Counted from the stretch's first letter, positions 1,971-62,890 are shown. The stretch: 64,000 nucleotides of DNA from Spirochaetia bacterium (GCA_963662795.1 OY759746.1:2112001-2176000), one strand, 5' to 3'. The notes: generated from the sequence alone by a model not told the origin. Numbers and translations: made by a program.

Positions 1971-2142
1971 GGATAACAGAGGATACTGCGCTACGCTCGG
2001 AGTACCTCGCTTGGCCTACGGCATATTTTGCTATCATCAAAAATGAATAGTAAAAGTTAAACTTTTTTCAAAATTAACAAAGTAGACATAAATGTTTTAG
2101 AGTATGAACCGCAAAACATCGCGTATCCTCAGGACGTTATCC
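1971..2142 (+). repeat. Long host-type attC, family A (gaggata/tatcctc arms)
   Basis: TAAC 1974 ... GTT 2136. Confidence 0.8.
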
Positions 2143-2256
2143 ACAATATCATCGCAAGATGACACCGCCCGGACCTCCGGCCAACGGGCGAAGAGTAGAA
2201 AAAGACATAATGGTTAACCAATTAAACCGATACATTCAAAGAAAGCAGAGGAATAT

Positions 2257-2604
2257 ATGAAAAAAGAAATTGTTAAAACACAAAAAGGAGAAATAACAGT
2301 TTACAGCGATATTGAAGTACCAATATCAGATGCATCAGATTTTCTTGATCTGCTTGCAAATACAAATACTAAAACAATATCACTGGATAAAGAATATTTA
2401 GATAATAGATTTTATGAATTAAGCTCTGGTCTAGCAGGAGAAATACTTCAGAAAGTATCAAATTATAGAAGAAGCGTGATAATTATAGGAGATTTTATCA
2501 ATATCAATAAAAAGAGTTTAAAAGACTTTATATATGAAAGCAATAAAACAGGGCAGGTTGTATTTGCCAAAGACTTGGAAGAAGGAATCATTTTGCTGAA
2601 GTAA
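2257..2604 (+). CDS. DUF4180 family protein
   Basis: FYELSSGLAGEILQK...SLKDFIYESNK motif. Confidence 0.8.
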   Translation: MKKEIVKTQKGEITVYSDIEVPISDASDFLDLLANTNTKTISLDKEYLDNRFYELSSGLAGEILQKVSNYRRSVIIIGDFININKKSLKDFIYESNKTGQVVFAKDLEEGIILLK

Positions 2605-3036
2605 TTGGAAAAAAGAGGAAAGATTTTGAAGAAAGATTTAATAGCTGCATGTGGAATTAATTGCTCATTATGTACAGGCTATCAAAGAGAAAAGAATAAA
2701 TGCGAAGGTTGCAGGAGTGTTGGCAATAAACCAAAGAATTGCTTGAATTGCATAGTAGTAAATTGTAACAAGAGAGAAGGGAAGGAAGATTTTTGCTTTT
2801 CATGCGATACTTATCCATGCCAGAAAATTAAAAGGCTTGCAAATCGTTATAGTATGCGGTATGGAGTAGATATTTATAAAAATCTTGAAAGAATTAAAGC
2901 CAAAGGAATAAAGGTATTTGTTGAAGAAGAAAATGAAAAATGGAAATGTATAAAGTGCAAAGCTTTATTATGTATGCATAGCAAAAATTGTTTAAAATGT
3001 GGTGAAGTAAATCCATATTATATTGGAACTTTATAA
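2605..3036 (+). CDS. DUF3795 family Cys-rich protein
   Basis: CGINCSLC...CEGC...FCFSCDTYPC. Confidence 0.75.
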   Translation: MEKRGKILKKDLIAACGINCSLCTGYQREKNKCEGCRSVGNKPKNCLNCIVVNCNKREGKEDFCFSCDTYPCQKIKRLANRYSMRYGVDIYKNLERIKAKGIKVFVEEENEKWKCIKCKALLCMHSKNCLKCGEVNPYYIGTL

Positions 3037-3060
3037 TAGGTCTTTAAAAAGGATAAAGTA

Positions 3061-3471
3061 ATGATTTACCATATAGTACCGGAAAAAGAGTATTTGAAAT
3101 TAGCTGCAAAAGAGAAATATATCCCAAATAATTTCAATGATTTCGGATTTGTACATTGTGCTTTTAAAGTTTCGGTTTTATCAGTTGCAGATGACTATTA
3201 TTCAAAAGTAAAGGATAAGCTTATTCTTTTGAAAATAAACCCTGAGAAATTAAAGTCAGATGTAAAATATGAGGAAGCAACTCCGGAAGAAGGTTTAGGT
3301 AAAGAGCATTTAAATACTTCAAATGTTTTTCCACACGTATATGGGCCAGTAGATAATGATGCAGTTGAAGGAGTAGGCGAATTGGGGAAGAAAGAGGGAA
3401 AATATAGCTGGCCAGTTAAATTCATTCCTTTTGCAGAATATTTGGAAACAAATAAGAAGATAAAAGATTAG
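3061..3471 (+). CDS. DUF952 family protein
   Basis: MIYHI, GFVHC, FPHVYGP motifs. Confidence 0.8.
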   Translation: MIYHIVPEKEYLKLAAKEKYIPNNFNDFGFVHCAFKVSVLSVADDYYSKVKDKLILLKINPEKLKSDVKYEEATPEEGLGKEHLNTSNVFPHVYGPVDNDAVEGVGELGKKEGKYSWPVKFIPFAEYLETNKKIKD

Positions 3472-3521
3472 TCCGGCCTTGGCATTGCCGTGCGGCCTGG
3501 ACAAGAAGCGATGATACTGGT

Positions 3522-3693
3522 GGATAACAGCGGTTCAAGCGCTGCGCTCGGAGTACCTCGCTTGGGCTTCGCCACATTTTACTTTTATTTAATCCAGGAA
3601 ACATCTATTTTATAGTTTTCAAGTTTAGCAATACGTTTAAATGGGTTTTTAAGTTTTTACCGTAAAACGTCGCTTAACCGCAGGACGTTATCC
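3522..3693 (+). repeat. Long attC, family D (gcggtt/aaccgc)
   Basis: TAAC 3525 ... GTT 3687. Confidence 0.8.
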
Positions 3694-3781
3694 ACAATGC
3701 CCCGCCAAGAGAAGCGCGTGCCGTCCTGGCACGCAAGAATATAGAAAACAATTATTAAAAATGTAAGAAAGAGGAATTAAA

Positions 3782-4273
3782 ATGAAAACATTAAATGACT
3801 ATATAGAAGAATATAAGGATCAACTTGAAAAAGGCGATATACAAAAAGCCTATAGATCAATCATGGATTTCATGATGAGTCTAAGAATATATTTTGAAAA
3901 AAAATATAGTGAATATTATATTTCCGGAAGTATTTATTATGGGTATATGGATATGACATATTTTTCATTCACTCCGGAAGTATTAAAAGAAAAAAAGTTA
4001 AAAATAGCAATTGTTTTTATCCATGAGAGTGTAAGTTTTGAAGTCTGGCTTTCAGGATATAATAAAAGTATTCAGGATAAATACTGGAAGTATTTTAAAG
4101 AAAAGAAATTGAAAAAATACCATGTACCAGAAGATATAAAAGGAAAGGATTCTATAGTTGAATATAAAATAAAAGAAAAAGCTGATTTTAATGATTTAAA
4201 CAAGTTAACAAGTAAAATAGAGAAAGAAATACTTTTATTTATTGAAGATATAACAGCTTATCTTGAAAATTAG
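3782..4273 (+). CDS. Conserved hypothetical protein (DUF7000-like)
   Basis: IYYGYMDMTYFSFTP...FEVWLSGYN; RBS gagg. Confidence 0.6.
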   Translation: MKTLNDYIEEYKDQLEKGDIQKAYRSIMDFMMSLRIYFEKKYSEYYISGSIYYGYMDMTYFSFTPEVLKEKKLKIAIVFIHESVSFEVWLSGYNKSIQDKYWKYFKEKKLKKYHVPEDIKGKDSIVEYKIKEKADFNDLNKLTSKIEKEILLFIEDITAYLEN

Positions 4274-4340
4274 AAATGTTTAAAGAAAACTTGATTTATA
4301 GTATAAACATAGTATATACTATAAATAGAGGTTAATTTAT

Positions 4341-4577
4341 ATGGAAACTGTTATAAAAAAATGGGGAAATAGCCTGGGAATAAGAATCCCAAGCCTTATA
4401 GCTAAGGATTTATCTCTTAAAGAAGGATCTTTTGTTGAAATTGAAGATGAGAGAGGAAGGATAGTAATAAAACCCAAGAAAAAGAATGATTTGAAGGAAA
4501 TGCTTAAAAATATCAGTGATAATAACCTCCATGGCGAATTTGAAACAGAAAGTCCTGTAGGAAATGAGGCATGGTAA
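4341..4577 (+). CDS. mazE: AbrB/MazE antitoxin
   Basis: KKWGNSLGIRIP...PVGNE; overlaps toxin; own promoter (ttgatt...tatact). Confidence 0.9.
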   Translation: METVIKKWGNSLGIRIPSLIAKDLSLKEGSFVEIEDERGRIVIKPKKKNDLKEMLKNISDNNLHGEFETESPVGNEAW

Positions 4578-4915
4578 AGAAAGATTATGTACCAGAAAGG
4601 GGTGATATAATCTGGTTAAACTTTACCCCGCAATCAGGACACGAGCAGATGGGAAAAAGACCAGCGATAGTAATATCTCCTAAAGAATACAATGAAAAGG
4701 TAGGACTTGGAATATTTTGTCCCATAACCAGTAAAGAGAAAGGCTATCCATTTGAGGTGAAGATAAAAAGTAAGAAAATAGATGGAGTAGTATTATCAGA
4801 TCAGGTAAAAAGTCTTGACTGGAAGACTAGAGATGCAGAGTTTATAGTAAAAGCGAGTAAAGAAGAGATCAAAGAAGTAATAGATAAGATAAGTGTTTTA
4901 ATACTTGAAGAATAG
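4571..4915 (+). CDS. mazF: MazF/PemK endoribonuclease toxin
   Basis: YVPERGDIIWLNFTPQSGHEQMGKRPA, DQVKSLDW. Confidence 0.92.
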   Translation: MVKKDYVPERGDIIWLNFTPQSGHEQMGKRPAIVISPKEYNEKVGLGIFCPITSKEKGYPFEVKIKSKKIDGVVLSDQVKSLDWKTRDAEFIVKASKEEIKEVIDKISVLILEE

Positions 4916-4970: not shown

Positions 4971-5140
4971 GGATAACAGAGGATAATGCGCTTCGCTCCC
5001 TTTGGTCGCTTGGGCTTCGCCACACATCGTAGGTTTTGAACAACAACTTTTTGAAACTACACTTTTGAAAGAAAAATAATACAACTGTTAGAAAATTATA
5101 CTTGTTCGACGATGCGTCGCTTATCCTCGGGACGTTAGCA
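4971..5140 (+). repeat. Long attC, family A
   Basis: TAAC 4974 ... GTT 5134. Confidence 0.8.
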
Positions 5141-5257
5141 GCAATACGTCCCCAAGAGGACACCACCCGGACCTCCGGCCAACGGGCGAGGATAGGTGGT
5201 AAGAATATTTTATCTAAAAACAATTGAAATTAAATAAAATTATTAATGGTAGCAACT

Positions 5258-6028: not shown

Positions 6029-6286
6029 ATGGATGCAGTATCATATTCGGATTTAAGACAAAATCTGAAATCCTATTTAGACAGGGTTTTCCATGATCAT
6101 GATCCAATGATCATAACAAGAAAAAATAATGAAAACCTCGTATTGCTTTCAATTTCAGAATATAATAGCCTTATCGAAACAAGCTACTTATTAAGTAATG
6201 AGTCTAATGCGATGCATCTTAAAAAATCAATTGATCAGCTGAATTCAGGAAAAGTAGAAGAAAAGGTATTATTGGCAGATGAATAA
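6029..6286 (+). CDS. yefM: Phd/YefM antitoxin
   Basis: VSYSDLRQNLK...ETSYLLS..NAMHL. Confidence 0.9.
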   Translation: MDAVSYSDLRQNLKSYLDRVFHDHDPMIITRKNNENLVLLSISEYNSLIETSYLLSNESNAMHLKKSIDQLNSGKVEEKVLLADE

Positions 6287-6539
6287 GCTGTTCACTGATG
6301 AGGCATGGAAAGACTATTTATATTGGTTTGAAAATGATAAGAAGCAGTTAAAAAAAATTAATGATCTTATAAAAGCAATTGAAAGATCTCCATTTGATGG
6401 ATTAGGTAAACCGGAATCATTAAAATTTAATCTTAAAGGTTTTTGGTCAAGAAGAATTGATCATGAGCATAGAATAGTGTATCAGGTAGAAGGTACACAG
6501 CTTAGAATAGTATCTTTAAGATATCATTACGAAAAATAA
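6279..6539 (+). CDS. yoeB: Txe/YoeB toxin
   Basis: AWKDYLYW, GLGKPESLK, WSRRIDHEHRIVY, RYHY. Confidence 0.92.
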   Translation: MNKLFTDEAWKDYLYWFENDKKQLKKINDLIKAIERSPFDGLGKPESLKFNLKGFWSRRIDHEHRIVYQVEGTQLRIVSLRYHYEK

Positions 6540-6643
6540 AAAACAGTTAAAATAATTTTAAGGAAAACAATAAAGGTGGAGAGAATAGAAGAAGTCCGGC
6601 CTTGGCGTTGCCGTGCGGCCTGGACAAGAAGGGGACGTACAGC

Positions 6644-6835
6644 TGCTAACAGCGATTATTTCGCTGCACTCCCTGTGGTCGCTTGGGCTCCTGCCAGTTG
6701 AGCTGGCAGATCGCCATATTTTGTTTTCATAAAACCGGAACAACATGTGCTTTGTGCTCTTCAAGTTTGTAAAAACCAAATAAAAGTATTTTAGAGTTTA
6801 GTCACAAAACATCGAATAATCGCGAGACGTTATCC
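6644..6835 (+). repeat. Long attC, family B (gcgatta/taatcgc)
   Basis: TAAC 6647 ... GTT 6829. Confidence 0.8.
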
Positions 6836-8473: not shown

Positions 8474-8853
8474 AATGATATATTTTCAGGACAAGGATTT
8501 ACATTGAAATTAGATAACAATAGATATTTCGTATTACGAGAATATTATGGTTCTGGAGTCGATGTTGCCTGTAGAATTTTGTACGATGTTAATCTTGTTT
8601 CAGATTATCAAATAGATTTTGATAAAATCAATCATATGTCAAGTAAGCAGAATGTTGAAGATGATAAATTTATTTTACGGATAGAAAATGATGAGGTGGA
8701 ACTTTTCATTAATGGTTTACAGATTGAAATTGTAAATAAAATTGAATTAGTAAATACCCTAAAATGTATAAATAAATCTTACTAATAAACACTGGTAAGG
8801 AAGTCCGGCCTTGGCTCCGCCGTACGGCTAGGACAAGAAGTGGGGGCACTGGT

Positions 8854-9024
8854 GGATAACAGAGGATAATGCGCTTCGCTCCCTTTGGTCGCTTGGGCTT
8901 TGCCACACATCGTAGGTTTTAAACTACACCTTCTATAAAAAACAAGTTGTAGAAGAGAAATATTGCAACTTCTAAATATTCATTCTTGGTCTACGATGCG
9001 TCGCTTATCCTCGGGACGTTATGC
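8854..9024 (+). repeat. Long attC, family A
   Basis: TAAC 8857 ... GTT 9018. Confidence 0.8.
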
Positions 9025-9156
9025 TCAATACCAGCCGCAAGAAGAGATCGCCCGGACCTCCGGCCAACGGGCGAAGATGAAGAATAATAAATAAGAATTA
9101 TATTGATTCAAATTAGTACAATATTATAGCATTAGATATATAATTAACGAGGGTCA

Positions 9157-11047: not shown

Positions 11048-11239
11048 AAATAACAGCGATTATTTCGCTGCGCTCCCGATGGTCGCTTGGGCTCCTGCCA
11101 GTTGAGCTGGCAGATCGCCATATTTTGTTTTCATAAAACCGGAACAACATGTGCTTTGTGCTCTTCAAGTTTGTAAAAACCAAATAAAAGTATTTTAGAG
11201 TTTAGTCACAAAACATCGAATAATCACGAGACGTTATAA
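11048..11239 (+). repeat. Long attC, family B
   Basis: TAAC 11051 ... GTT 11233. Confidence 0.8.
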
Positions 11240-11289
11240 GCAATGTTCCCGCAAGAGAAAACCGCCCGGACCTCCGGCCGACGGGCGAG

Positions 11290-11350
11290 GAAAGCATAAT
11301 CTGCTTTATACATAAAATCTATTGTTTTCTAGTTATTTAATATGTTATAC
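11290..11350 (+). other. Putative internal attI-like docking site (left half)
   Basis: ctttatacataaa...ttttctagttatttaatatGTT (GTT 11344). Confidence 0.6.
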
Positions 11351-12625
11351 CATAGGTGACTAAAACAATCATAACAGCTCCAGTTGAATATTAAAACTAC
11401 TTTTTCTAGTCTGTTCTGATGGCGGTTTATTGAGAACAGTCCAGATATCTTTTCTTGATGTCAGTATTACAGGAATCAATTTCATCAGTGAAAAATGAGT
11501 CCATTTTCTACATGAAAACATTTTAAGGAACTGAAGTAACAGAAAAGCAATTAGGGCAATCCAGATTTGTGTCATTACAGCATTTCTGGAAGTACCAAAG
11601 AATTTCTTGATCTTGAGGTTCTGTTTGATAGTTTTAAAAAATATTTCAATCTGCCATCTGTCTTTGTAAACAGCAGCAATTGTTGTTGGAGACCAAAGGA
11701 AATTATTGGTAAGAATTACAATATATTTACCGGTTTCAGGATCTCTGCTTCTGATTCGTCTTAATTTTAACGGGCATTTTTTACTGGTGTAAAATCCTTT
11801 CATTTCTATGATCTGATCAGATGTAATATTTTTAAAGGAGGAGGTATCTTTTCTCTGGACAATTTTATAATCAGCATTCTTTTTTAACCTGGTAACAAAA
11901 TAAATACCGGTATTACAATAATTTGCGAATAATTTAAAGTCAGTATAACCACGATCAAACGTGATGACATCGCCTTTGTTGAAAGCCATTTTTTTCAAGG
12001 AATTGACTTCATGTGTTTTTGCAGTTGTAACTGATACAAAAGCTGGAATATATCCACTATGGTCAAGTTTTACATTAAGTTTTATTCCGCCTTTATATTT
12101 TCTGAAATTTGCCCATGGAAAGAGATTTAAACACAAGTCAATAGTTGATGCATCAACACTGTAAAGAGGATTTTTAAATTTATGTTTATGCGCTCTCTTC
12201 ATGGATAATATCTTATCAAGAAGATCAGTGAAAACATTTTCATAAACTTCACAGCTTCTATTATTATTTGCGTAAGATAATGTAGAGCGTTTTACCTTTT
12301 TTACACCCATATGATAAAGGTGGTTACTGATTGATTCAAAAGAGTTTTCAATGCCTCTTAACCCGGTCTGTCCTGAAAGTTGTGCAAAGAGCATGGAGAC
12401 AAAATGCTGCCAACAGGTAAAACCTTTGGAAGCGAAGTCGCCATTATGCTTTTTTACAGATTTTTCAAATTCATGTCTCGGAATTATTTGTAGAATTTGT
12501 TTTAAAATGGTATTATTGTAACTCATTGCCTGATTTCCTTTTCCTGTAAAGAATTAGCCGTCCAAGCTTAATTCATTATAGTTGGGATTTCAGGCAATTA
12601 ATAGTCCTTGTTTTGGACACCTATG
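11351..12625 (-). mobile_element. IS4 family IS, copy 1 (1275 bp), no TSD
   Basis: Ends cataggtgactaaaacaa / ttgttttggacacctatg. Confidence 0.9.
11369..12526 (-). CDS. IS4 family transposase (DUF4372 + DDE)
   Basis: VDASTIDL, FDRGY, YKDRWQIEIFFKTIKQNL (YREK). Confidence 0.95.
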   Translation of the reverse strand: MSYNNTILKQILQIIPRHEFEKSVKKHNGDFASKGFTCWQHFVSMLFAQLSGQTGLRGIENSFESISNHLYHMGVKKVKRSTLSYANNNRSCEVYENVFTDLLDKILSMKRAHKHKFKNPLYSVDASTIDLCLNLFPWANFRKYKGGIKLNVKLDHSGYIPAFVSVTTAKTHEVNSLKKMAFNKGDVITFDRGYTDFKLFANYCNTGIYFVTRLKKNADYKIVQRKDTSSFKNITSDQIIEMKGFYTSKKCPLKLRRIRSRDPETGKYIVILTNNFLWSPTTIAAVYKDRWQIEIFFKTIKQNLKIKKFFGTSRNAVMTQIWIALIAFLLLQFLKMFSCRKWTHFSLMKLIPVILTSRKDIWTVLNKPPSEQTRKSSFNIQLELL

Positions 12626-12632
12626 ATCTAAT

Positions 12633-13280
12633 ATGAGATATCAATTATACAACGAAATTAAAGTAGAAACATTGAATAAAGATAATAAATATTTTTATAA
12701 AGGAATATTGGAATTAAAATATATTTTATTTATAGATTACATGAATGAAATTAATAAATTATTATTAGATGATACTAATAATTTTGATGAAAAACCAAGA
12801 TATAAAGTAATAAGCATAAAAAAAACTATTAATATTTTGAAGAAAGATTCTTATAGGAAAATATTTATCATAGAAATTAATAAACAAAATATAGTAATTG
12901 ATAATTTTGGAACAATAAATAAAGATGAAGAAATCCAAGAAATAGTAAAAGAAAAATATATTGCAGAAAAAATGCGTATTTATGATAAAATATTAGAAAC
13001 ATGGAATCTATTAGAATCAAAATATAATTTAAAAATATATAAAGAGTTTAGAAATAAAGTCATTGCACATAATCAGCTTAAAACTGTGAATGGGGTAAAA
13101 GATGGATTTGAATATAACATAAAAGAGTTTGAAAATCTTGAGGAAATACATGAAATAACTAAAATATTAATAATAGATCTTAATTCTTTAATAAATGGAG
13201 AATTGAATGTTATTATAGCAGTAGAAAATGAGCAAAAGAAAATGGCTGAAGCAATATTTAAAACAATAAATAACGTATAA
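12633..13280 (+). CDS. Putative HEPN-domain (AbiU2-like) protein, possibly 5'-truncated by the IS
   Basis: FRNKVIAH Rx4-6H motif. Confidence 0.5.
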   Translation: MRYQLYNEIKVETLNKDNKYFYKGILELKYILFIDYMNEINKLLLDDTNNFDEKPRYKVISIKKTINILKKDSYRKIFIIEINKQNIVIDNFGTINKDEEIQEIVKEKYIAEKMRIYDKILETWNLLESKYNLKIYKEFRNKVIAHNQLKTVNGVKDGFEYNIKEFENLEEIHEITKILIIDLNSLINGELNVIIAVENEQKKMAEAIFKTINNV

Positions 13281-13380
13281 CAAACGCATGCAACTGACAA
13301 TTTTTTTCTCATAGTTTTTGAATACTCAAAAACTATGACAACTATTCGAGACAAAATTACAGCTGATGCGGTCGTTATAA
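13275..13380 (+). repeat. Short classical attC of inner cassette
   Basis: GTATAAC-aaacgcatgcaactg...cagctgatgcggtc-GTTATAA. Confidence 0.75.
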
Positions 13381-13450
13381 AATTAAAAAAAGAAAGAAGT
13401 CCAGCCTTGGCTCCGCCGTGCGGCTTGGACAAGAAGCGGCTGGTACTGGA

Positions 13451-13624
13451 GCATAACAGAGGATAATTCGCTGCGCTCGGATTACCTCGCTTGGCCTGCG
13501 GCATATTTTACTATCATATAAATGATAATAATTGATAATTATCCTTTTTATATTTTGTTAATCAAACACAAGAGATTTCTATAGTTCGAGCCGTAAAACA
13601 TCGCTTATCCTCAGGACGTTCTCC
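13451..13624 (+). repeat. Long attC, family A
   Basis: TAAC 13454 ... GTT 13618. Confidence 0.8.
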
Positions 13625-14539: not shown

Positions 14540-14710
14540 CGAGAACAGAGGATAAAGCGCTTCGCTCCCTCTGGTCGCTTGGGCTTCGCCACACATCGTA
14601 GGTTTTGAACTACAACATTTATAAACAACAAGTGTTGGAAGAAGAATATTGCAGCTTTGAAATATTCATTCTTAGGCTACGATGCGTCGCTTATCCTCGG
14701 GACGTTATGC
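14540..14710 (+). repeat. Long attC, family A (GAAC core)
   Basis: GAAC 14543 ... GTT 14704. Confidence 0.8.
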
Positions 14711-14962
14711 GAAAGACTGGCCGAAGAGGAATAGGCTGGGGCGGGGGAGAGGAAGACGCCGCCGCACATCGTGTGCGGCGAAGAAAAAGCTCATAAACTG
14801 TGATTTTTATAAGCTGTAAGTCTATTTTTATGAATTACCATTATTCAAACGAAAAATAAATATAAATATCATTTAAAGCAGTTCCTTTCGTATCATTTGA
14901 TTATGGATTGGGCAAATGATAAAATATTGACAAAAAGCATACAATGTAATATATTAACTTAA

Positions 14963-15238
14963 ATGAATATTATCTGGGATAAAGGGAAAAATAAAACTCT
15001 TAAGCTTGATAGAAACTTGTCTTTTGAAATATTTGCGGATTTGATTCTGGATAAAAAATATCTTGATATTCTGGAGAATCCCTCTAGAAAAAATCAGATG
15101 ATATTTATAGTTGAATATAAAGAATATATACATGTTGTACCGTTTATTATTGATGATGAAGATAATATTGTATTAAAAACAGTATTTCCAAGCAGAAAAT
15201 TCCATAAAATCTATGGAGGGAATAAAAATGAAAGCTAA
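14963..15238 (+). CDS. BrnT-like toxin
   Basis: WDKGKNKTLKLDRNLSFE...LKTVFPSRK; TTGACA promoter upstream. Confidence 0.75.
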   Translation: MNIIWDKGKNKTLKLDRNLSFEIFADLILDKKYLDILENPSRKNQMIFIVEYKEYIHVVPFIIDDEDNIVLKTVFPSRKFHKIYGGNKNES

Positions 15239-15530: not shown

Positions 15531-15692
15531 TATTAAAATACAAAGTGCTTGATTCTAAGGTTGTCAGTAAAGTTATTTAAAAATATATCTACCTGGGTGG
15601 AATATATCTGATTAGTGTAATATTCACCGTCTCACACATCCCTGTGTTCGACGAAGACCGCCCCCAGCCTATTCCTCTTCGGCCAGCCCATC

Positions 15693-39682: not shown

Positions 39683-39754
39683 AATAAAAAAAAGAGAAAA
39701 AAGTCCAGCCTTGGCTCCGCCGTGCGGCTTGGACAGAAAGCGGCTGGTACTGGA

Positions 39755-39926
39755 GCATAACAGAGGATAAGGCGCTTCGCTCGGAATACCTCGCTTGGCC
39801 TGCGGCACACATCGTAGGTTTTGAATTACAACTTCTATAAACAACAAGTATTGGAAGAAAAATATTGCAACTTTAAAATAGATATTCTTTGTCTACTCTG
39901 CGTCGCTTATCCTCGGGACGTTATGC
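39755..39926 (+). repeat. Long attC, family A
   Basis: TAAC 39758 ... GTT 39920. Confidence 0.8.
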
Positions 39927-40133
39927 TCAATACCAGCCGCAAGATGCGATCGCCCGGACCTCCGGCCAACGGGCGAGGATATGCGGTAAATTAATATAAC
40001 TTATGTGAACAATCTATCTGGAAAATTTAATAAATGTTCTTTAAATAATTCGTTTAAGAATTGAGAAAATATATTACAAACTAATGTTGTAAAATTGATT
40101 TGACAATGTGCCATAAAAGTGGTACATTAAAGA

Positions 40134-43712: not shown

Positions 43713-43735
43713 TTATTTAGGAGGAAACCAATTAG

Positions 43736-47286: not shown

Positions 47287-47456
47287 GCATAACAGAGGAT
47301 AAAGCGCTTCGCTCCCTTTGGTCGCTTGGGCTTTGCCACACATCGTAAGTTTTAAATTACAACTTCTATAAACAACAAGTTTTAGAAGAAAATATTACAA
47401 CTTTGAAAAATTCATTCTTGAACTACGATGCGTCGCTTATCCTCGGGACGTTATCC
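47287..47456 (+). repeat. Long attC, family A
   Basis: TAAC 47290 ... GTT 47450. Confidence 0.8.
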
Positions 47457-47505
47457 ACAATATCATCGCAAGAGAACGCCGCCCGGACCTCCGGCCAACG
47501 GGCGA

Positions 47506-47547
47506 AGAAAATAGAATCTGCTGTATAATATACTTTATAGTTAAGAT
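47506..47547 (+). other. attI-like site truncated by IS4
   Basis: aaaatagaatctgctgTATAATatactttat, then IS. Confidence 0.55.
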
Positions 47548-48822
47548 CATAGGTGTCCAAAACAAGGACTATTAATTGCCTGAAATCCCAACTATAATGA
47601 ATTAAGCTTGGACGGCTAATTCTTTACAGGAAAAGGAAATCAGGCAATGAGTTACAATAATACCATTTTAAAACAAATTCTACAAATAATTCCGAGACAT
47701 GAATTTGAAAAATCTGTAAAAAAACATAAAGGGGACTTTGCTTCCAAAGGTTTTACCTGTTGGCAGCATTTTGTCTCCATGCTCTTTGCACAACTTTCAG
47801 GACAGACCGGGTTAAGAGGCATTGAAAACTCTTTTGAATCAATCAGTAACCACCTTTATCATATGGGTGTAAAAAAGGTAAAACGCTCTACATTATCTTA
47901 CGCAAATAATAATAGAAGCTGTGAAGTTTATGAAAATGTTTTCACTGATCTTCTTGATAAGATATTATCCATGAAGAGAGCGCATAAACATAAATTTAAA
48001 AATCCTCTTTACAGTGTTGATGCATCAACTATTGACTTGTGTTTAAATCTCTTTCCATGGGCAAATTTCAGAAAATATAAAGGCGGAATAAAACTTAATG
48101 TAAAACTTGACCATAGTGGATATATTCCAGCTTTTGTATCAGTTACAACTGCAAAAACACATGAAGTCAATTCCTTGAAAAAAATGGCTTTCAACAAAGG
48201 CGATGTCATCACGTTTGATCGTGGTTATACTGACTTTAAATTATTCGCAAATTATTGTAATACCGGTATTTATTTTGTTACCAGGTTAAAAAAGAATGCT
48301 GATTATAAAATTGTCCAGAGAAAAGATACCTCCTCCTTTAAAAATATTACATCTGATCAGATCATAGAAATGAAAGGATTTTACACCAGTAAAAAATGCC
48401 CGTTAAAATTAAGACGAATCAGAAGCAGAGATCCTGAAACCGGTAAATATATTGTAATTCTTACCAATAATTTCCTTTGGTCTCCAACAACAATTGCTGC
48501 TGTTTACAAAGACAGATGGCAGATTGAAATATTTTTTAAAACTATCAAACAGAACCTCAAGATCAAGAAATTCTTTGGTACTTCCAGAAATGCTGTAATG
48601 ACACAAATCTGGATTGCCCTAATTGCTTTTCTGTTACTTCAGTTCCTTAAAATGTTTTCATGTAGAAAATGGACTCATTTTTCACTGATGAAATTGATTC
48701 CTGTAATACTGACATCAAGAAAAGATATCTGGACTGTTCTCAATAAACCGCCTTCAGAACAGACTAAAAAAACTAGTTTCAATCTTCAACTGGAGCTGTT
48801 ATGATTGTTTTGGACACCTATG
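47548..48822 (+). mobile_element. IS4 family IS, copy 3, no TSD
   Basis: IR cataggtgtccaaaacaa / ttgttttggacacctatg. Confidence 0.93.
47647..48804 (+). CDS. IS4 family transposase
   Basis: Identical protein to copy 2. Confidence 0.95.
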   Translation: MSYNNTILKQILQIIPRHEFEKSVKKHKGDFASKGFTCWQHFVSMLFAQLSGQTGLRGIENSFESISNHLYHMGVKKVKRSTLSYANNNRSCEVYENVFTDLLDKILSMKRAHKHKFKNPLYSVDASTIDLCLNLFPWANFRKYKGGIKLNVKLDHSGYIPAFVSVTTAKTHEVNSLKKMAFNKGDVITFDRGYTDFKLFANYCNTGIYFVTRLKKNADYKIVQRKDTSSFKNITSDQIIEMKGFYTSKKCPLKLRRIRSRDPETGKYIVILTNNFLWSPTTIAAVYKDRWQIEIFFKTIKQNLKIKKFFGTSRNAVMTQIWIALIAFLLLQFLKMFSCRKWTHFSLMKLIPVILTSRKDIWTVLNKPPSEQTKKTSFNLQLELL

Positions 48823-48828
48823 ATTTAA

Positions 48829-49248
48829 TATAATAAACTGTCTGTTCTTAATAGAATTAGAATAGATGGGAATGAAGCAGAAAAACTTGGAAAAGATGAT
48901 TATCTAAAAGATTATTTAAAAATACTAGAAGCAATTCTTTTTAGAAAACATATAGATTATATGATGGAAGATGAATATCGGTTTATATCTTTTTCAAAAA
49001 AGAAATACGATTTTATAAATATAGAAAACTGTATCAATGGTATAATTGTGTCGTTAAATAATTTAAAAGAATGGCAAGTAAACAAATATGTTGAATTTGC
49101 TGAAGAAAATAATATTGAATTATTGTTTATATCGTGGAGTCAAAAAGGTTTTGATTTAGAAGGATATAAAGAATACATAAGATTTTTAAATATAGTTCAA
49201 GAGATTTTTAATAACAGTACAGCAAATGAAAATATTAATAAGCTATAA
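48829..49248 (+). pseudogene. 5'-truncated gene fragment (DUF2971-like)
   Basis: Frame open from 48829; FRKHIDYMMEDEYRF motif; start lost next to the IS. Confidence 0.5.
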
Positions 49249-49307
49249 CATGTTTTAGTCCAGCCTTGGCTCCGCCGAGCGGCTTGGACAAGAAGCCTGG
49301 CCACTAC

Positions 49308-49499
49308 GTATAACAGCGATTATTTCGCTGCGCTCCCTGTGGTCGCTTGGGCTCCTGCCAGTTGAGCTGGCAGATCGCCATATTTTGTTTTCATAAAACC
49401 GGAACAACATGTGCTTTGTGCTCTTCAAGTTTGTAAAAACCAAATAAAAGTATTTTAGAGTTTAGTCACAAAACATCGAATAATCGCGAGACGTTCTCC
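49308..49499 (+). repeat. Long attC, family B
   Basis: TAAC 49311 ... GTT 49493. Confidence 0.8.
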
Positions 49500-54397: not shown

Positions 54398-54399
54398 TT

Positions 54400-54728: not shown

Positions 54729-54920
54729 CTATAACAGCGATTATTTCGCTGCGCTCCCTGTGGTCGCTTGGGCTCCTGCCAGTTGAGCTGGCAGATCGCC
54801 ATATTTTGTATTCATAAAACCGGAACAACATGTGTTTTATGCTCTTCAAGTTTGTAAAAACCAAATAAAAGTATTTTAGAGTTTAGTCACAAAACATCGA
54901 ATAATCGCGAGACGTTATCC
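54729..54920 (+). repeat. Long attC, family B
   Basis: TAAC 54732 ... GTT 54914. Confidence 0.8.
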
Positions 54921-55107
54921 ACAATGCCCCCACAAGATGCGATCGCCCGGACCTCCGGCCGACGGGCGAGGAGAAACTATATAAAACAGTAATTATATTA
55001 TCGCAGAAGCTATACAAATAATTCAGGAAATATTGACTATTCAGATGTCTAAGATTATTTTTCAAAAGCAAGGTGTCAGCACCGGTGTTGACAGCAAGGA
55101 GATAAAA

Positions 55108-55365
55108 ATGACTAAAAAACAGATAGAAGTCTCCATAGGATTAGTTCATGAATTACCAATAGATTTGAAAGAAGCTTTAATTTCAGATTCAGAAATTCTG
55201 GAAAAATGGAATAAGCTTACACCAATAGCCCGTAATGAGTGGATATGCTGGACAATATCAGTCAAAAAAGAAGAAACGAGAGTTAATCATATAAAAAGAG
55301 TCTGTTCTGAATTGAAAGAGGGAAAGAAAAGACCTTGTTGCTGGCCAGGCTGTTCACATAGGTAA
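55108..55365 (+). CDS. YdeI/OmpD-associated family protein
   Basis: LTPIARNEWICW..SVKKEETR...RPCCWPGC. Confidence 0.8.
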   Translation: MTKKQIEVSIGLVHELPIDLKEALISDSEILEKWNKLTPIARNEWICWTISVKKEETRVNHIKRVCSELKEGKKRPCCWPGCSHR

Positions 55366-55425
55366 AATGATAATAGTTATGATTAAAAAATGATCATTAT
55401 CTGAATATAAGAAGTGAGGTTAAAC

Positions 55426-55866
55426 ATGAAAGAAGTGATAACCGAGATTGAGATAAATGCAAGTATCTCAAAAACATGGGAAGTTTTTTCTGCCTTTTCT
55501 GAATACCATAAATGGAACCCATTTATTAAATCAATCTCAGGAGATGTTAATCCTGGTAATACAATTATTGTAATTTTACAACAACCAGGTATGAAACCAA
55601 TGAAAATGAAGCCAAAAGTAATATCATTTAAAAAAGAAGAAGAATTAGTCTGGATTGGACATTTATTCATTCTAGGAATATTTGATGGAGAACACTCTTT
55701 TCGATTTATCAAAAACAAAGATGGAAGTACAAAGTTTATACAAAAAGAACTTTTTAAAGGACTAATAGTACCAATGCTTAATAGGATGCTGGATAAAAAC
55801 ACCAAGAATGGATTCGAACTTATGAATGAAAAACTAAAGCATGAAGTTGAAATGAAAAGATTATAA
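55426..55866 (+). CDS. SRPBCC (polyketide cyclase-like) domain protein
   Basis: TEIEINAS, YHKWNPFI, FDGEHSF. Confidence 0.85.
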   Translation: MKEVITEIEINASISKTWEVFSAFSEYHKWNPFIKSISGDVNPGNTIIVILQQPGMKPMKMKPKVISFKKEEELVWIGHLFILGIFDGEHSFRFIKNKDGSTKFIQKELFKGLIVPMLNRMLDKNTKNGFELMNEKLKHEVEMKRL

Positions 55867-55991
55867 AATATTGAAACGAAAAAACGATTTGATAAAAACT
55901 GAATTATTGAATTAAAGAAATTACAAAGGAATTTAAATAAGTCCAGCCTTGGATCCGCCGTGCGGCCTGGACAAGAAGGGGGGGCACTGGT

Positions 55992-56090
55992 GGATAACAG
56001 CGGGGAAGAAGCTGCGCTCGCAGTAGCTCGCTTGGGCTTCGCCATATTTTGCTATCAAATAACTAGAGTAATTCTTGTTATGTTATTTTC
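55992..56090 (+). repeat. Truncated long attC (left half, family E-like)
   Basis: TAAC 55995 with left arm and hairpins; right arm absent. Confidence 0.65.
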
Positions 56091-56132
56091 GAGCAAAAAA
56101 TTAACAGAAACAAAAAATAAAGGAGAAAAATT

Positions 56133-56753
56133 ATGAGCAAAATAATTTTTGACAGTGGAATATCCCTTGACGGTTTTTTCGCAGGAGACAACAGAAGTCC
56201 TAAAAATCCTATGGGTGGTGTTTCAGGACAAATTCACTTGTGGATGTTTAATCAAAAAGCTTTCTGGGAATACCTGGGGTTTGAAGGAGAAAAAGAAGAC
56301 GGTGCTGACGGAAAATACATTAGAGAGACAATCGCAAGAACAGGTGCATTCATTATGGGAAAACGTATGTTTGAGGAAGGCGAAGCCAGTTGGCCAAATG
56401 ACCTATACAAAGCTGACGTTTATGTATTAACACACAAAAAGCGAGAACCTTGGGTTCAAGAAGGAACGACAACTTTTTACTTCATAAATGATGGAATAGA
56501 AAGTGCCTTGGACAAAGCAAGACAATCAGCAAAAGGAAAGGACATAAGAATACAAGGTGGGGCAAACACTATTCAACAATTTCTAAATGCAAGACTTGTG
56601 GACGAGTTTTTTATTCACATTGCACCCGTGTTTTTAGGAAGCGGCATCCGACTTTTTGACGGTATTGATAAAGACATGTACAACATACAAATCGTAGAAG
56701 TGATACCGTCTGAATTAACGACTCATTTAAGATATAAATTGACTAAGAAATGA
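56133..56753 (+). CDS. Dihydrofolate reductase-like / RibD C-terminal domain protein
   Basis: ISLDGFFAG, MGKRMF, GGANTIQQFL..LVDE...APVFLGSG.RLF. Confidence 0.88.
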   Translation: MSKIIFDSGISLDGFFAGDNRSPKNPMGGVSGQIHLWMFNQKAFWEYLGFEGEKEDGADGKYIRETIARTGAFIMGKRMFEEGEASWPNDLYKADVYVLTHKKREPWVQEGTTTFYFINDGIESALDKARQSAKGKDIRIQGGANTIQQFLNARLVDEFFIHIAPVFLGSGIRLFDGIDKDMYNIQIVEVIPSELTTHLRYKLTKK

Positions 56754-56764
56754 AAACAACGACC

Positions 56765-56894
56765 CGCTAACAATGTATATACAAAATGGGCGGAATAGTA
56801 ATAATTTCAACGGTTGTAGCCCGCTTCAAAATTGTCTCGGTTTGATAAGTTTGAAGCCCGCAATCGCCCACTTTGCATATACTAACCGTTATGC
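56765..56894 (+). repeat. attC-like site of a foreign style
   Basis: cccgcTAAC-aatgtatat..aaatgggcg...cgcccacttt.catatac-taaccGTTA. Confidence 0.7.
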
Positions 56895-57003
56895 TCAATA
56901 CCAGCAGCAAGAGGAAATCGCCCGGACCTCCGGCCAACGGGTGGGGAGAATGAAGTTTAATTATATCAAAACTATTGTATAATGCAAATAAAGGATAAAA
57001 ACG

Positions 57004-57690
57004 ATGAATAAAATAAAATCTGAAATAAAAAAAAGAATCCCGGGTTTTTTATATCTTATTCTTGCAATAACTGGATTTTATACTCCTTTTGTAATGGATA
57101 AATTTAGTTCTATCCTTGATGCAACACAATGGTACGAGGCAATTATTCAGAATCAATTATTCTTCTCCTCTGGGATTTTAAGTTTCTATTTGATGAACAT
57201 TTCATGGTTAATGCTTGCTTATTCATTGTACAGTATTTTTAAAATGACTTATAAAACATATTCAAATATATTATTACTATCTGTAATTTCAGGGACAATT
57301 TTAGTGTTTATTTTAATTGTCGCCAAGTCAATACCTTTATACTTAATGTCTTTAACTCACCAAAATACTATAGCTAATCCAATGATTTGGATAGAGAGAG
57401 CCCATTTTATATTTATTTTAAGCATGAAAAGCAATATTTCAGCCTATTTGTTTTATTCTATTTGGCTCTTACCTCTTGCAATTTTAATTATAAAAGATCC
57501 AAAAATAACAAACATAGAAAAGATAATATTATCAATTTCACTAATTTTTGCAGCTATAGGATATATGGCAGATTTTCTATTATTTCATTGTTATCCGCAG
57601 CATAACAATATAAAAATAACAGATTTCACTTTTTATGGTGAAGTGATCGTATTATTATGGCTATTATTAAGGGGAATCAATAAAAATTAA
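57004..57690 (+). CDS. DUF4386 family membrane protein
   Basis: Multi-TM; WLLPLA, AIGY..D, GEV..LLWLL.RG. Confidence 0.7.
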   Translation: MNKIKSEIKKRIPGFLYLILAITGFYTPFVMDKFSSILDATQWYEAIIQNQLFFSSGILSFYLMNISWLMLAYSLYSIFKMTYKTYSNILLLSVISGTILVFILIVAKSIPLYLMSLTHQNTIANPMIWIERAHFIFILSMKSNISAYLFYSIWLLPLAILIIKDPKITNIEKIILSISLIFAAIGYMADFLLFHCYPQHNNIKITDFTFYGEVIVLLWLLLRGINKN

Positions 57691-57798
57691 TAGACAAGAA
57701 GCAACATTTAAAATGTACAGGTAGAGTATTACCTAACAATGAAAGAAGTCCAGCCTTGGCTCCGCCGTACGGCCTGGACAAGAAGTGGGGGCACTGGT

Positions 57799-57971
57799 GG
57801 ATAACAGAGGATAAGGCGCTTCGCTCCCTTTGGTCGCTTGGCCTTTGGCATATTTTGCTATCATTAGAACCAAGTGATTTAAATTTAATACTTTTTGAGA
57901 TTTTAAAATAACAAACAAATATCTGTTAGAGTTTTCAACGCAAAACATCGCTTATCCTCGGGACGTTATGC
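57799..57971 (+). repeat. Long attC, family A
   Basis: TAAC 57802 ... GTT 57965. Confidence 0.8.
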
Positions 57972-61305: not shown

Positions 61306-61415
61306 AAACTAAAAATATAATAAAGCTTCTATGTATTCATTTACATAGGAGCTTTTTAAATTAATTTAAAATCAAAAAAGTATTACATGCTAATTGAAAT
61401 CAATATGAGATGTTT

Positions 61416-61459
61416 AGATAGCAAACGATTCGAGCAGCCCGCTCAATCGGGCGTTATAA
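61416..61459 (+). repeat. Degenerate inner attC remnant (TAAC to TAGC, internally deleted)
   Basis: TAGATAGC approximately complements start GTTATCTA; cgattcgagc/gctcaatcg arms; GTT 61453. Confidence 0.6.
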
Positions 61460-61538
61460 AAATCAAAAGGTAAAAAAGAGAAAGAAGTCCAGCCTTGGCT
61501 CCGCCGTGCGGCCTGGACAAGAAGCGGCTGGTACTGGA

Positions 61539-61708
61539 GCATAACAGAGGATAATGCACTTCGCTCCCTTTGGTCGCTTGGGCTTCGCCACACATCGTAG
61601 ATTTTGAACAACAACTTCTATAAAAACAAGTTTTTGAAGAAAAATATTATAACTTTGAAATAATAATTCTTGGGCTACGATGCATCGCTTATCCTCGGGA
61701 CGTTATTT
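61539..61708 (+). repeat. Long attC, family A
   Basis: TAAC 61542 ... GTT 61702. Confidence 0.8.
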
Positions 61709-61926
61709 GCAATACCTTCGCGAAGAGAAAATCGCCCGGGCCCCTGGCCGACGGGCGAGGATTTGCAGTCAAATAATATGTTTTAGGCGGACGCTTTTGA
61801 CGTGCAAGAACAGATATTATCTAAATAAATACATAAAAGTCTTCTGATAGTTTGATGTGTTACTTGTTGAAATAAACCAAAAAATGAACTATATTTGATA
61901 AATAATGGTTCATTTAGGAGTTTTAT

Positions 61927-62181
61927 ATGAAATCTATTACCATACATGGAATTGATAATGATCTCGATAAGAAAATTGCAGAAAAGTCTGTCGAATTTGG
62001 TTTAAGCCAGAACCGAACAGTTAAGTATATCCTGCAAAATTCATTAATTACTGATAAAAAAGCTTCTAAAAAGGACTCCTATGCTGAATTATTTGGTAAA
62101 TGGTCAACAAAAGAGAAAGAAGAGTTTGATAAAAAAATCAGTGATTTTGAAGTAATAAATGAAATGGACTGGAAAAAATGA
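61927..62181 (+). CDS. vapB: VapB-like antitoxin (duplicate of 10276)
   Basis: Identical protein. Confidence 0.75.
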   Translation: MKSITIHGIDNDLDKKIAEKSVEFGLSQNRTVKYILQNSLITDKKASKKDSYAELFGKWSTKEKEEFDKKISDFEVINEMDWKK

Positions 62182-62576
62182 CCAAGATACTACTTGATAC
62201 AAATGCCTATAGTGAGTTTATGTCCGGAAATAAGTTGGTATTTGAATATATTATAGAAGCAGAAATAATCTATGTATCAACCATTATGATCGGTGAACTA
62301 TTCGCAGGTTTTCAAGGTGGAAAAAAGTATACACAAAATAAAGAAGATTTTAAGAAATTCATCAGCAAAGATGGAATAAAAATATTGAATGTCACAATTG
62401 AAACATCAGAAATATTTGGAGAAATCAAGGCGGAACTAAGTAAAAAAGGAAAAATGATACCATTAAATGATATTTGGATTGCTGCTCATGCAATAGAAAC
62501 AGGTTCAAAATTAATCACATACGATTCACACTTTAAACAGATAAATGGTTTGAGAATTTGGGAAGAATATAGATAG
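62178..62576 (+). CDS. vapC: VapC toxin (duplicate of 10527)
   Basis: Identical protein. Confidence 0.92.
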   Translation: MTKILLDTNAYSEFMSGNKLVFEYIIEAEIIYVSTIMIGELFAGFQGGKKYTQNKEDFKKFISKDGIKILNVTIETSEIFGEIKAELSKKGKMIPLNDIWIAAHAIETGSKLITYDSHFKQINGLRIWEEYR

Positions 62577-62698
62577 GTAAATTGTCCAATTACTGATTCA
62601 ACTCTTTGCTTTTTACAGGTTAAGTAAGTATTAAAAAGAAAAGGAAGTCCAGCCCTTGGCTCCGCCCTAACGGTCTGGACAAGACGCGAAGGTACTGC

Positions 62699-62890
62699 AA
62701 ATAACAGCGATTATTTCGCTGCGCTCCCTGTGGTCGCTTGGGCTCCTGCCAGTTGAGCTGGCAGATCGCCATATTTTGTTTTCATAAAACCGGAACAACA
62801 TGTGCTTTGTGCTCTTCAAGTTTGTAAAAACCAAATAAAAGTATTTTAGAGTTTAGTCACAAAACATCGAATAATCGCGAGACGTTAGCA
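62699..62890 (+). repeat. Long attC, family B
   Basis: TAAC 62702 ... GTT 62884. Confidence 0.8.

Follow-up and report, generated by a model that had tools for sequence, protein, structure and literature searches.

Extended, covarying arms at the cassette termini of a large attC array in a Spirochaetia bacterium

The cassettes of a large attC array in a Spirochaetia bacterium carry terminal arms of about 20 nt, through which the start of nearly every cassette is complementary to its own end. The arms pair and covary, keep a fixed geometry, are conserved in related genomes, and, in folding computations, make the attC more stable and more often correctly folded when the two ends of one cassette are joined, with the greater effect on the bottom strand. 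The best explanation, to which we assign roughly an even chance, is that selection maintains the arms as a lengthened attC base stem, one that comes about only once the cassette is excised. Recognition of integron attC sites is generally ascribed to structure, with no more than a 7-bp R box at the base, and the arms bear on how free cassettes are favored for insertion while huge arrays stay stable, as well as on how cassettes are made.

Results

The window, a 64,000-nt stretch of the genome, contains 36 long attC sites, which delimit 35 complete cassettes (2136..62705; plus strand, as are all coordinates below unless noted). It is a subset of an array of 191 long attC sites and 190 cassettes that spans ∼332 kb (G000:C1:1,847,951-2,180,706). 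Within the window, the motif [AG]ACGTT matched 41 times; 36 matches were kept as R' sites and five, which were without attC context, were removed by eye. For the whole array, attC sites were called with two half-site HMMs and hand curation of four degenerate R' sites. The attC sites are 134-182 nt long (n = 191), with an inverted R'' ending in AAC and an R' starting with GTT, and the median cassette length array-wide is 1.3 kb. The ORFs of the array lie on the same strand as the arms, toxin-antitoxin-like cassettes are present, and GC skew places the bottom strands on the leading-strand template.

The initial annotation of the window proposed that the first ∼20 nt of a cassette pair with its own end and not with that of its neighbor, and the array-wide counts are stronger than that claim. 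The extension (15 nt beyond GTT+6) scored at least 8 against the reverse complement of its own cassette end in 173 of 190 cassettes, as compared to 51 of 191 in-array junctions and 8.8% of all other pairings. Equal complementarity after shuffling of starts and ends had been named as the outcome that would speak against the proposal; 2000 shuffles gave a mean of 17.6 matches and a maximum of 32. Pairing is perfect, at 18 of 18 positions, in 147 of the 190 cassettes, while 26 have one mismatch, nine score 15-16, and eight score below 15. In the window, 33 cassettes pair with their own end by eye, which reproduces the numerator of the earlier manual count of 33 of 36 and corrects its denominator to 35; 30 of the 35 pass a strict rule that requires at least 8/9 in the R block and at least 8/9 in the extension. 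The window holds 18 distinct start classes, in keeping with the more than 12 different sequences first reported, and about 40 classes are present array-wide. The example pairs were found where the annotation had placed them (5134 with 6631-6650, 18645 with 19582, and 53552 with 54735), as was the GTTC/GAAC covariation at 13618, 30692, and 49493, for which the partner ends are at 14546, 32248, and 50415.

The two exceptions in the window start at 11233 and 47450. The cassette at 11233..13457 has ends of different classes (start ATAAGC/TGTTCCCGC, end ATGCTC/TACCAGCCGC) and is probably either chimeric or two fused cassettes; that at 47450..49314 also has mismatched ends. The imperfect arm pairs showed no position gradient along the array (p = 0.85), and no length difference was found between mismatched cassettes and the others.

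The order of elements at the cassette ends is fixed, as had been described, and consists of a 9-bp R box, an AA facing 2-3 nt, a 9-10-bp helix, an AAGA linker, and a conserved GC hairpin. One 5' arm, taken as an example (5134..5157), comprises GTT+6 (5134-5142), AA (5143-5144), a 9-nt extension (5145-5153), and AAGA (5154-5157), followed by a 5' GC hairpin (5164..5188) that differs by one base from the consensus CGCCCGGACCTCCGGCC.ACGGGCG. At the other end of the same cassette, the 3' GC hairpin (6594..6625) and an AAGAA linker (6626-6630) lead to the 3' arm (6631..6650), which is made up of the extension (6631-6639), a CA that faces the AA (6640-6641), and an R'' ending in AAC (6642-6650), and which pairs with 5134-5153. 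The interior that follows (L'' to L', 6651..6828) belongs to an attC of the 179-nt type, with the G of R' at 6829; the next cassette is of another end class and therefore only a short R box can form there in the array.

Across the array, AA occupies positions 10-11 in 189 of 190 cassettes and AAGA positions 21-24 in 133. An A.C mismatch at position 11, which becomes G.T on the bottom strand, is found in 62 of 64 distinct start/end combinations. The suggestion that A:C mismatches turn into G:T on the bottom strand is thus upheld for what is essentially one conserved position; a strand asymmetry of mismatches apart from position 11 was looked for and not found. The GC hairpin noted inward of each arm matches the consensus in 162 (5') and 158 (3') of the 190 cassettes, and most of the others carry another hairpin, with 22 of 28 and 25 of 32, respectively, still folding at ≤ −6 kcal/mol. 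No T run follows the 3' hairpin. In the folds, the 5' and 3' hairpins each close on themselves, and pairing between the two was considered by eye alone. The result is a constant frame around hypervariable arms, in which GTT, AAT, AAGA, and the hairpin are invariant in 12 classes and positions 4-9 and 13-20 vary.

The ∼40 end classes serve 150 content families, and the largest consists of 40 cassettes from 36 unrelated families. The ends therefore mark a class and not a cassette, and the original term "cassette-specific barcode" was an overstatement. Neighbors belong to one end class at 51 of 191 junctions (27%), which is three times chance, and selection for unmatched neighbors is therefore not indicated. 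Covariation is seen at positions 6-9 and 12-20, each with three to four Watson-Crick pair types and with pairing in 54-60 of the 62 distinct rows; no pairing is seen at position 21. Within classes of identical arms, the unpaired linker positions 25-30 have accumulated 6-13 variants (six largest classes listed), and array-wide there are 67 linker words versus 36 extension words.

To compare folding, 147 cassettes with a differently starting neighbor were folded on both strands, with their own ends joined and as the in-array junction. Joining made the junction more stable, by a computed 12.9 ± 6.0 kcal/mol for the bottom strand and 10.9 kcal/mol for the top (n = 147). On the bottom strand the median probability that AAC and GTT are paired was 0.50 in the array and 0.95 after joining; on the top strand the values were 0.004 and 0.27, respectively. 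These values agree, in silico, with the idea that joining the ends adds a second helix and improves attC folding. The discrimination is modest because in-array sites still fold, as the bottom-strand median of 0.50 indicates. Two natural junctions were compared as well. One with the same end class on both sides (39735..39946, minus strand) is predicted to fold into a base stem of 22 bp, followed by a 4-nt unpaired spacer and the L box (MFE −34.6 kcal/mol, z −4.51, 0/200 shuffles as good), whereas one between different classes (8834..9044, minus strand) forms only a 6-bp R box (MFE −26.3 kcal/mol, z −2.06, 6/200 shuffles as good). As in attC sites generally, L'' and L' are complementary in the folds, the 4-nt unpaired spacer is one-sided, and the bottom strand is favored over the top; the predicted L stems contain single unpaired bases that differ between attC types.

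In the classical rule, crossover occurs at G|TT and what remains of R' is counted with the next cassette. Duplicated cassettes have a left boundary that stops at GTT in 50 of 55 pairs, as expected for such a crossover. Homology ends at AAC in 36 of the 55 pairs, and the downstream attC travels along in only 15. The attC interior type and the upstream end class are almost independent (AMI = 0.07). Since copies of one cassette carry swapped interiors, the classical unit of a gene plus its own attC is not clean here; homologous recombination or a second site-specific crossover at AAC are candidate causes. Inside the scaffold, 24 cassettes have a conserved leader, 20 have a short attC-like site that ends in GTTATAA, and 10 have both, an arrangement that resembles a host cassette into which cargo was placed.

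The layout recurs, with other arm sequences and attC types, in four related genomes, namely G011, G005, and G008 (another genus) and G002, as the survey suggested with the original proposal could have revealed. In these relatives, 13 of 28 adjacent pairs scored at least 12, as compared to 1 of 286 non-own pairs; the other 15 were unmatched, a share that may differ in truth, as attC calling there is crude. Own-end matches in control arrays were short, with 7-8 nt in three of four cassettes of a Victivallales MAG array, 10 nt in G020, and, for the class 1 cassettes of plasmid pMAK3, 8 nt in aac(6')-Iae and 12 nt in the neighboring aadA2. An Aquabacterium plasmid integron was set aside as a control since its array was not visible. 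The control lengths fit the short R box that the annotation had ascribed to classical cassettes, given as 7 bp in a section of Loot 2017 (PMC5371416), with 4 variable bp for which pairing in the array is not required. Like the cassettes described here, aadA2 has a start that pairs with its own end past the 7-bp core, and thus some extension exists in classical cassettes; unlike them, its 12-nt match is a single uninterrupted run without a second helix, conserved mismatch, or flanking hairpins.

The only IntI-type gene in the genome is a canonical intI at 412 kb, 1.4 Mb from the array, which is a pseudogene with a frameshift and a stop. A similarity search with the IntI fragment gave matches only in a Victivallales MAG (39% identity) and Streptomyces. 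The head of the array is occupied by a Xer-like tyrosine recombinase gene whose product misses ∼40 residues of the IntI insertion, keeps the catalytic R-K-H-R-H-Y, and scores 200 bits against TIGR02249 (cut-off 265). A complete integron has an adjacent intI with the IntI-specific insertion, which this array lacks, and under current software definitions it would be classed as an attC cluster without integrase. In G000, G002, and G011 the first cassette has the Xer-like gene directly upstream, and in two other families (G020 and G022) the gene is also found upstream of small attC arrays. The first cassette begins at GTT, at a distance from the gene of 150 nt in G000 and about 500 nt in G011, and inspection by eye showed no conserved attI sequence beside the gene in these two genomes. 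Among titles and abstracts on CALIN, Xer, and integron-like elements, no attC arrays headed by a Xer-like gene were found.

Discussion

The sites resemble classical attC (59-be) in their AAC...GTT R boxes, complementary L boxes, unpaired spacer, and same-strand ORFs, and the cassettes resemble classical ones in that duplicates have their left boundary at GTT and the first bases pair with their own R''. They are unlike classical attC in the reach of own-end pairing (∼20 nt versus about 7), in the conserved A.C/bulge at positions 10-11, in the GC hairpins on both sides, and in their length together with an interior that assorts independently of the cassette. The Vibrio cholerae superintegron is a large sedentary chromosomal integron. 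By description, the array shares its hundreds of cassettes, repeated attC types, leading-strand template, and toxin-antitoxin-like cassettes; it differs, again by description, in a low-GC host of another class, an intI that is broken and not adjacent, a Xer-like recombinase at its head, and extended cassette termini. According to a portion of Loot 2017 (PMC5371416), most large sedentary arrays have bottom strands that lie within the leading-strand template; the size of such integrons is given there too. The Treponema "inverted-integrase" integrons likewise have a recombinase gene upstream of the cassettes on the same strand, but theirs are IntI proteins, and the attC sites of T. denticola are given as 63-68 bp in the relevant sections (Wu et al. 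2013, PMC3607928). The passages of that paper around inverted repeats, complementarity, hairpins, and stems do not mention extended cassette termini, and no description of them was found in literature on integrons, attC, and Treponema integrons, mostly at the level of titles and abstracts.

If the arms are an extension of the attC base stem, the R box in this lineage would be 9-10 bp long and followed by the AA-versus-2-3-nt irregularity and a second, GC-rich helix of 9-10 bp. Crossover at G|TT would then leave the R' remainder and one extension at the 5' end of the cassette, and the other extension and R'' before the 3' AAC. In the array these halves usually face a foreign partner, which would leave an R box of only about 5-6 bp. 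In the excised cassette, the joined ends would form a ∼20-bp helix under the L box, and the recombinogenic bottom strand would fold into the correct hairpin almost always. We infer that the arms are kept by selection for pairing in the excised cassette. In such a model, free cassettes would be better substrates for integration than in-array sites are for excision, which would aid the stability of the 191-cassette array, and the conserved flanking hairpins may insulate the stem from cargo. Vit 2021 (PMC8191803) treats the strandedness of free cassettes, single or double, as unsettled, a point that weighs against the model. For an extended base stem we counted pairing, covariation, hypervariable arms in a conserved frame, linker drift, relatives, folding, the A.C/G.T position, the GTT boundary, the short controls, and leading-strand orientation. 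Against it we counted the broken and distant intI, the folding of in-array sites, neighbors that share classes, ends common to unrelated cassettes (which fits scaffold reuse), interior swapping, the missing decay gradient, and the unmatched pairs in relatives.

The sharing of ends could also be a footprint of origin, in which cassettes derive from a few empty scaffolds that were loaded with cargo and the arms match by descent, with no present function. The small number of end classes relative to content families, a frame that is nearly identical across classes, the leaders and GTTATAA-ending sites that suggest cargo in a host cassette, and a decay with no positional gradient all point this way. 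We nevertheless find it rather unlikely. It leaves unexplained how each scaffold class became complementary in the first place and why each position has three to four compensated pair types, the layout is retained, with different sequences, in another genus, and the unpaired linker has drifted inside classes whose two arms remained complementary, which weakens this reading. Another reading, which we regard as unlikely, starts from the gene at the head of the array: the system may be a distinct integron-like class run by the Xer-like recombinase and not by IntI, with the arms and arm-site-like hairpins as building blocks of the enzyme's substrate and exchange at AAC or GTT. Exchange on either side of the attC interior would cause interiors to assort independently of cassettes.

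The arms might instead act within the array, where the two ends of one cassette would pair across it in single-stranded DNA (9 plus 9-10 bp, GC-rich) and bring the flanking attC pair together, so that the unit of excision is exactly one cassette. Both arms together are far more stable than either in-array R box, diverse arms in a conserved frame are what is expected of a specificity determinant, and the median cassette length falls among those of the single-stranded gaps that a section of Loot 2017 (PMC5371416) considers for excision. Still, this has a poor chance of being correct, as the leading-strand template, where the bottom strands lie, rarely has long single-stranded stretches, pairing of this kind would take apart both flanking R boxes, and specificity would be low with classes common to many cassettes and 27% of neighbors. 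A long-range stem around each cassette in a polycistronic transcript, which would process or stabilize mRNA with the hairpins as protective ends, would suit the same-strand ORFs, the hairpins that flank each coding region, and a 3' hairpin that, without a T run, is not a plain terminator. We consider it very improbable, given that the conserved irregularity reads A.C in the sense that is transcribed and becomes G.T on the opposite strand alone, that every comparison has the top strand folding less well, and that the stem includes AAC/GTT, the triplets of recombination, and stops precisely at the crossover. Least credible, to the point of being almost negligible, are transposon- or MITE-like inverted repeats read by one protein at both ends. 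The repeats are indeed terminal and have an invariant GTT...AAT / A(C/T)(T/A)G...AAC frame around the variable parts, but ∼40 pairwise-covarying arm sequences cannot be the motif of one protein. Such elements have a conserved terminal repeat sequence and target-site duplications; here the duplications are absent, the flanks are attC halves, and the units are bounded by bona fide R''-L''...L'-R' hairpins.

The roughly 40 compensated variants of an extra base helix constitute a natural covariation series that bears on whether the stability of the stem in free cassettes governs the balance of integration and excision. Different attC interiors behind the same cassette question the textbook unit of a gene and its attC, and a non-IntI recombinase heading arrays in several families questions the requirement for IntI. 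If this is true, current integron-finding rules would miss or mislabel such arrays.

Partial and displaced sites were also observed. A half attC in the window (55964..56060), of which only the left side is left, has a 3' arm and an R'' ending at 55998 followed by a decayed interior that runs into an ORF, and it divides an apparent 2892-bp cassette (54914-57805). Elsewhere in the genome, three isolated attC sites are present at 451.6 kb, 2.345 Mb, and 2.490 Mb. They were rejected as single inserted cassettes, since a matching start is absent within 4 kb, and for the same reason they look like relocated fragments of the array.

Extent and orientation of the array

The window (G000:C1:2,112,001-2,176,000; GC ∼32%) sits within a very large cassette array in a 3.93-Mb genome assembled as a single contig. 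Within the window, 36 of the 41 matches to [AG]ACGTT were retained as attC R' boxes, five being discarded by eye, and each retained R' has an AAC-ending R'' 134 to 179 nt upstream. Two half-site HMMs were trained on these 36 sites and run genome-wide, which returned 186 left and 187 right half-sites, all but three of each in one region. Merging the HMM and regular-expression calls, with four degenerate R' sites added by hand, gave a whole array of 191 attC sites, separated by 190 cassettes that are 483 to 5864 bp long (median 1342 bp). An extra first cassette starts at 1,847,951. The genome-wide GC skew places the origin at ∼1.40 Mb and the terminus at ∼3.43 Mb, which puts the bottom strands of the attC sites on the leading-strand template, an orientation found in 25 of 30 sedentary arrays according to Loot et al. 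(2017).

The array ends with a truncated site at 2,180,706, where no more than the first 19 nt of the next cassette start remain (GTTATGCTCAATACCAGCC). On the minus strand at 2,489,624, 309 kb off, an isolated attC has the same cut base and is followed by similar sequence, which suggests that the same inserted element or rearrangement split the array. At window 55964-56060 an attC has kept its left half only, and its decayed interior runs into the next ORF, fusing two cassettes.

Pairing of cassette ends

The initial annotation had described the two ends of each cassette as complementary to one another well beyond the attC core. Every start/end example that it quoted is correct. Its count of 33 self-pairing cassettes is borne out by eye, out of 35 complete cassettes rather than 36, and a strict rule pairs the start with its own end in 30 of the 35; more than 12 barcode sequences had been claimed, and 18 start classes are present in the window. 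Array-wide, the 15 nt beyond GTT + 6 nt were compared with the end of the same cassette in reverse complement, and 173 of 190 cassettes matched with a local score of at least 8. Such a score was also attained by 51 of the 191 in-array junctions (an end plus the next cassette's start) and in 8.8% of other pairings, and 2000 permutations of starts and ends gave a mean of 17.6 matches and a maximum of 32, as compared to the 173 observed. All 18 paired positions match in 147 cassettes, one mismatch occurs in 26, and nine score 15-16; the other eight are clearly chimeric.

The layout is fixed as proposed, with GTT + 6 nt, AA, nine to ten paired bases, AAGA, and a GC hairpin. Positions 10-11 are AA in 189 of 190 cassettes, opposite two nucleotides in 102 and three in 87. 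Position 11 has an A·C mismatch, which becomes G·T on the bottom strand, in 62 of the 64 distinct combinations. The second helix consists of nine or ten paired bases and position 21 is unpaired. AAGA is present in 133 of 190 cassettes, and the consensus GC hairpin in 162 (5') and 158 (3'), with other hairpins in most of the remainder. The covariation is evident: three to four Watson-Crick pair types occur at each of positions 6-9 and 12-20, where 54-60 of the 62 distinct rows are paired. Alignment of 12 end classes, i.e., sets of cassettes with the same arm sequences, reveals variable islands in the arms within an otherwise invariant frame.

The end class ATGCGA/GGCTGGCCG (window 14704-15699 and 32386-32869) has an inverted repeat that continues for ∼40 nt, through GAAGAGGAATAGGCTGGGG, and flanking hairpins that deviate from the consensus. 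Its 484-bp members are the array's shortest cassettes.

The arms are not cassette-specific, as had been supposed. The 190 cassettes, with their 150 content families, share ∼40 classes, and the largest class contains 40 cassettes with 36 unrelated contents. Same-class neighbors are three times commoner than chance, and neighboring cassettes are not kept different in their ends.

Folding of joined ends and its interpretation

Each cassette's own ends were joined in silico, and the 147 cassettes with a differently starting neighbor were compared with their in-array junctions. As had been anticipated for circularized ends, the joined junctions fold better, gaining 12.9 ± 6.0 kcal/mol (bottom strand) or 10.9 kcal/mol (top strand; n = 147), and 94% of these cassettes gain stability on joining. 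Median AAC:GTT pairing probabilities were 0.95 (bottom) and 0.27 (top) for joined junctions as compared to 0.50 (bottom) and 0.004 (top) in the array. Two natural junctions differ in the same way: the one between same-class neighbors has a base stem of 22 bp (-34.6 kcal/mol, z -4.5), and the one between different classes has an R box of 6 bp (-26.3 kcal/mol, z -2.1). The in-array sites are not crippled.

The arms could be inverted repeats bound by a protein. However, they differ between classes yet covary pairwise, and therefore must meet as nucleic acid rather than serve as a protein's sequence motif. Other rival explanations are a stem formed in RNA and self-recognition of the two ends across a cassette within the array. 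The joined cassette is the only state in which the arms are adjacent, and there they lengthen the attC base stem.

A further rival is descent, in which the complementary ends were inherited with shared scaffolds. In the six largest classes, the unpaired linker beside the arms has 6-13 variants while both arms stay identical and complementary, and in another genus the design is retained with different sequences. Both findings argue that the pairing is maintained and not merely inherited. The inferred consequence is that a cassette, once free, would fold better than the sites in the array, which would favor insertion over excision and keep the array stable. According to Vit 2021, the field has not settled on a single- or a double-stranded form for the free cassette.

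The array is thus of integron type, and its attC base stem extends into the matched ends of the cassettes. In the literature, as far as its text was accessible, we found nothing relevant on extended cassette termini or on attC arrays headed by a Xer-like gene, and the available part of a Treponema integron paper mentions neither.

Relatives and control arrays

Forty relatives were searched with one attC module and matches were found in five. The same layout is present, with other arm sequences, in three genomes of another genus (G011, G005, and G008) and in a further relative (G002). Their arms include AT-rich ones and their attC types are shorter. With crude attC calling that probably missed sites, 13 of 28 adjacent pairs score at least 12, as compared to 1 of 286 non-own pairs.

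Among the controls, an array in a Victivallales MAG has own-end matches of 7-8 nt in three of four cassettes and none in the fourth, and G020, from another family, has a match of 10 nt. On the Salmonella plasmid pMAK3 (L061), the class 1 cassettes aac(6')-Iae and aadA2 match over 8 and 12 nt; own-end pairing in the classical aadA2 cassette thus reaches five nucleotides beyond the 7-bp core. Modest extension therefore exists elsewhere, whereas the systematic two-helix design of ∼20 nt was found in this lineage only, among the arrays examined.

Exchange of attC interiors

In 55 pairs of duplicated cassettes, the left limit of homology is the start GTT in 50, and the right homology spans the whole downstream attC in only 15. 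In 36 pairs the homology ends at AAC and is followed by a different interior type, the interior being the part of attC between R'' and R'. For example, the cassettes at window 25175-26884 and at genome position 1,920,490-1,922,199 share cargo and arms and have interiors of 179 nt and 140 nt. Interior type is almost independent of the end class upstream (AMI 0.07) and downstream (AMI 0.03), as compared to an AMI of 0.86 between start class and own-end class. Based on these values and the homology limits, the cargo is tightly linked to the start and end arms of its cassette and not to the attC. The swapping could result from a second site-specific exchange at AAC, or it could result from homologous exchange in the 3' scaffolds, which are identical over ∼65 nt in cassettes of the same class.

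Recombinase genes

The sole IntI-type gene of the genome (G000:C1:412,089-413,302; locus L002, 1219-2430) carries a frameshift and an in-frame stop. It is 1.4 Mb away from the array and is flanked by IS3/IS30-like genes and by a 5S/23S rRNA region. Outside the window, at G000:C1:1,846,782-1,847,801 (locus L003, 739-1758), an intact gene encodes a Xer-like tyrosine recombinase of 339 aa; it shares the strand of the first cassette and ends 150 nt before that cassette's GTT. The protein has SAM-like and catalytic domains, scores 214.5 bits as XerA-type and 200 bits against TIGR02249 (cut-off 265), and lacks ∼40 residues of the IntI insertion when aligned to canonical IntI. Orthologs occupy the same position in G011 (45% identity) and G002 (80%), and in two other families (G020 and G022, the latter gene with a stop) homologs lie upstream of small attC arrays. 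Paralogs lie within the array at 2,050,779-2,051,573 and 1,881,758-1,882,309 (minus strand). IntI genes are intact in G011, G005, and G008. The arrays found in G011 and G005 are >400 kb away from the IntI genes of these two genomes, and the ∼30 kb inspected around those two genes contained no long-type attC. Together with the interior swapping, a non-IntI recombinase at the array head could make this array more than an integron variant.

Cassette contents

Some cassettes carry a conserved leader, which contains TGTATAAT ... GTTATTTAAT, after the 5' hairpin, and a short attC-like hairpin ending GTTATAA ahead of the 3' hairpin. These features are found at window 43625-43735 and 44785-44825, and further such cassettes start at 29053, 33010, 37973, 47450, and 57965. 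Array-wide, the leader occurs in 24 cassettes, the GTTATAA site in 20, and both in 10. Judged by sequence, they appear as if a classical short-attC cassette were placed inside the host scaffold.

Antitoxin/toxin pairs are common in large sedentary arrays. Two-gene cassettes at window 4340-4915 and 6029-6540, with ORFs read by eye, resemble such pairs, and their members look like AbrB/MazE-like with PemK/MazF-like and Phd/YefM-like with YoeB-like proteins.
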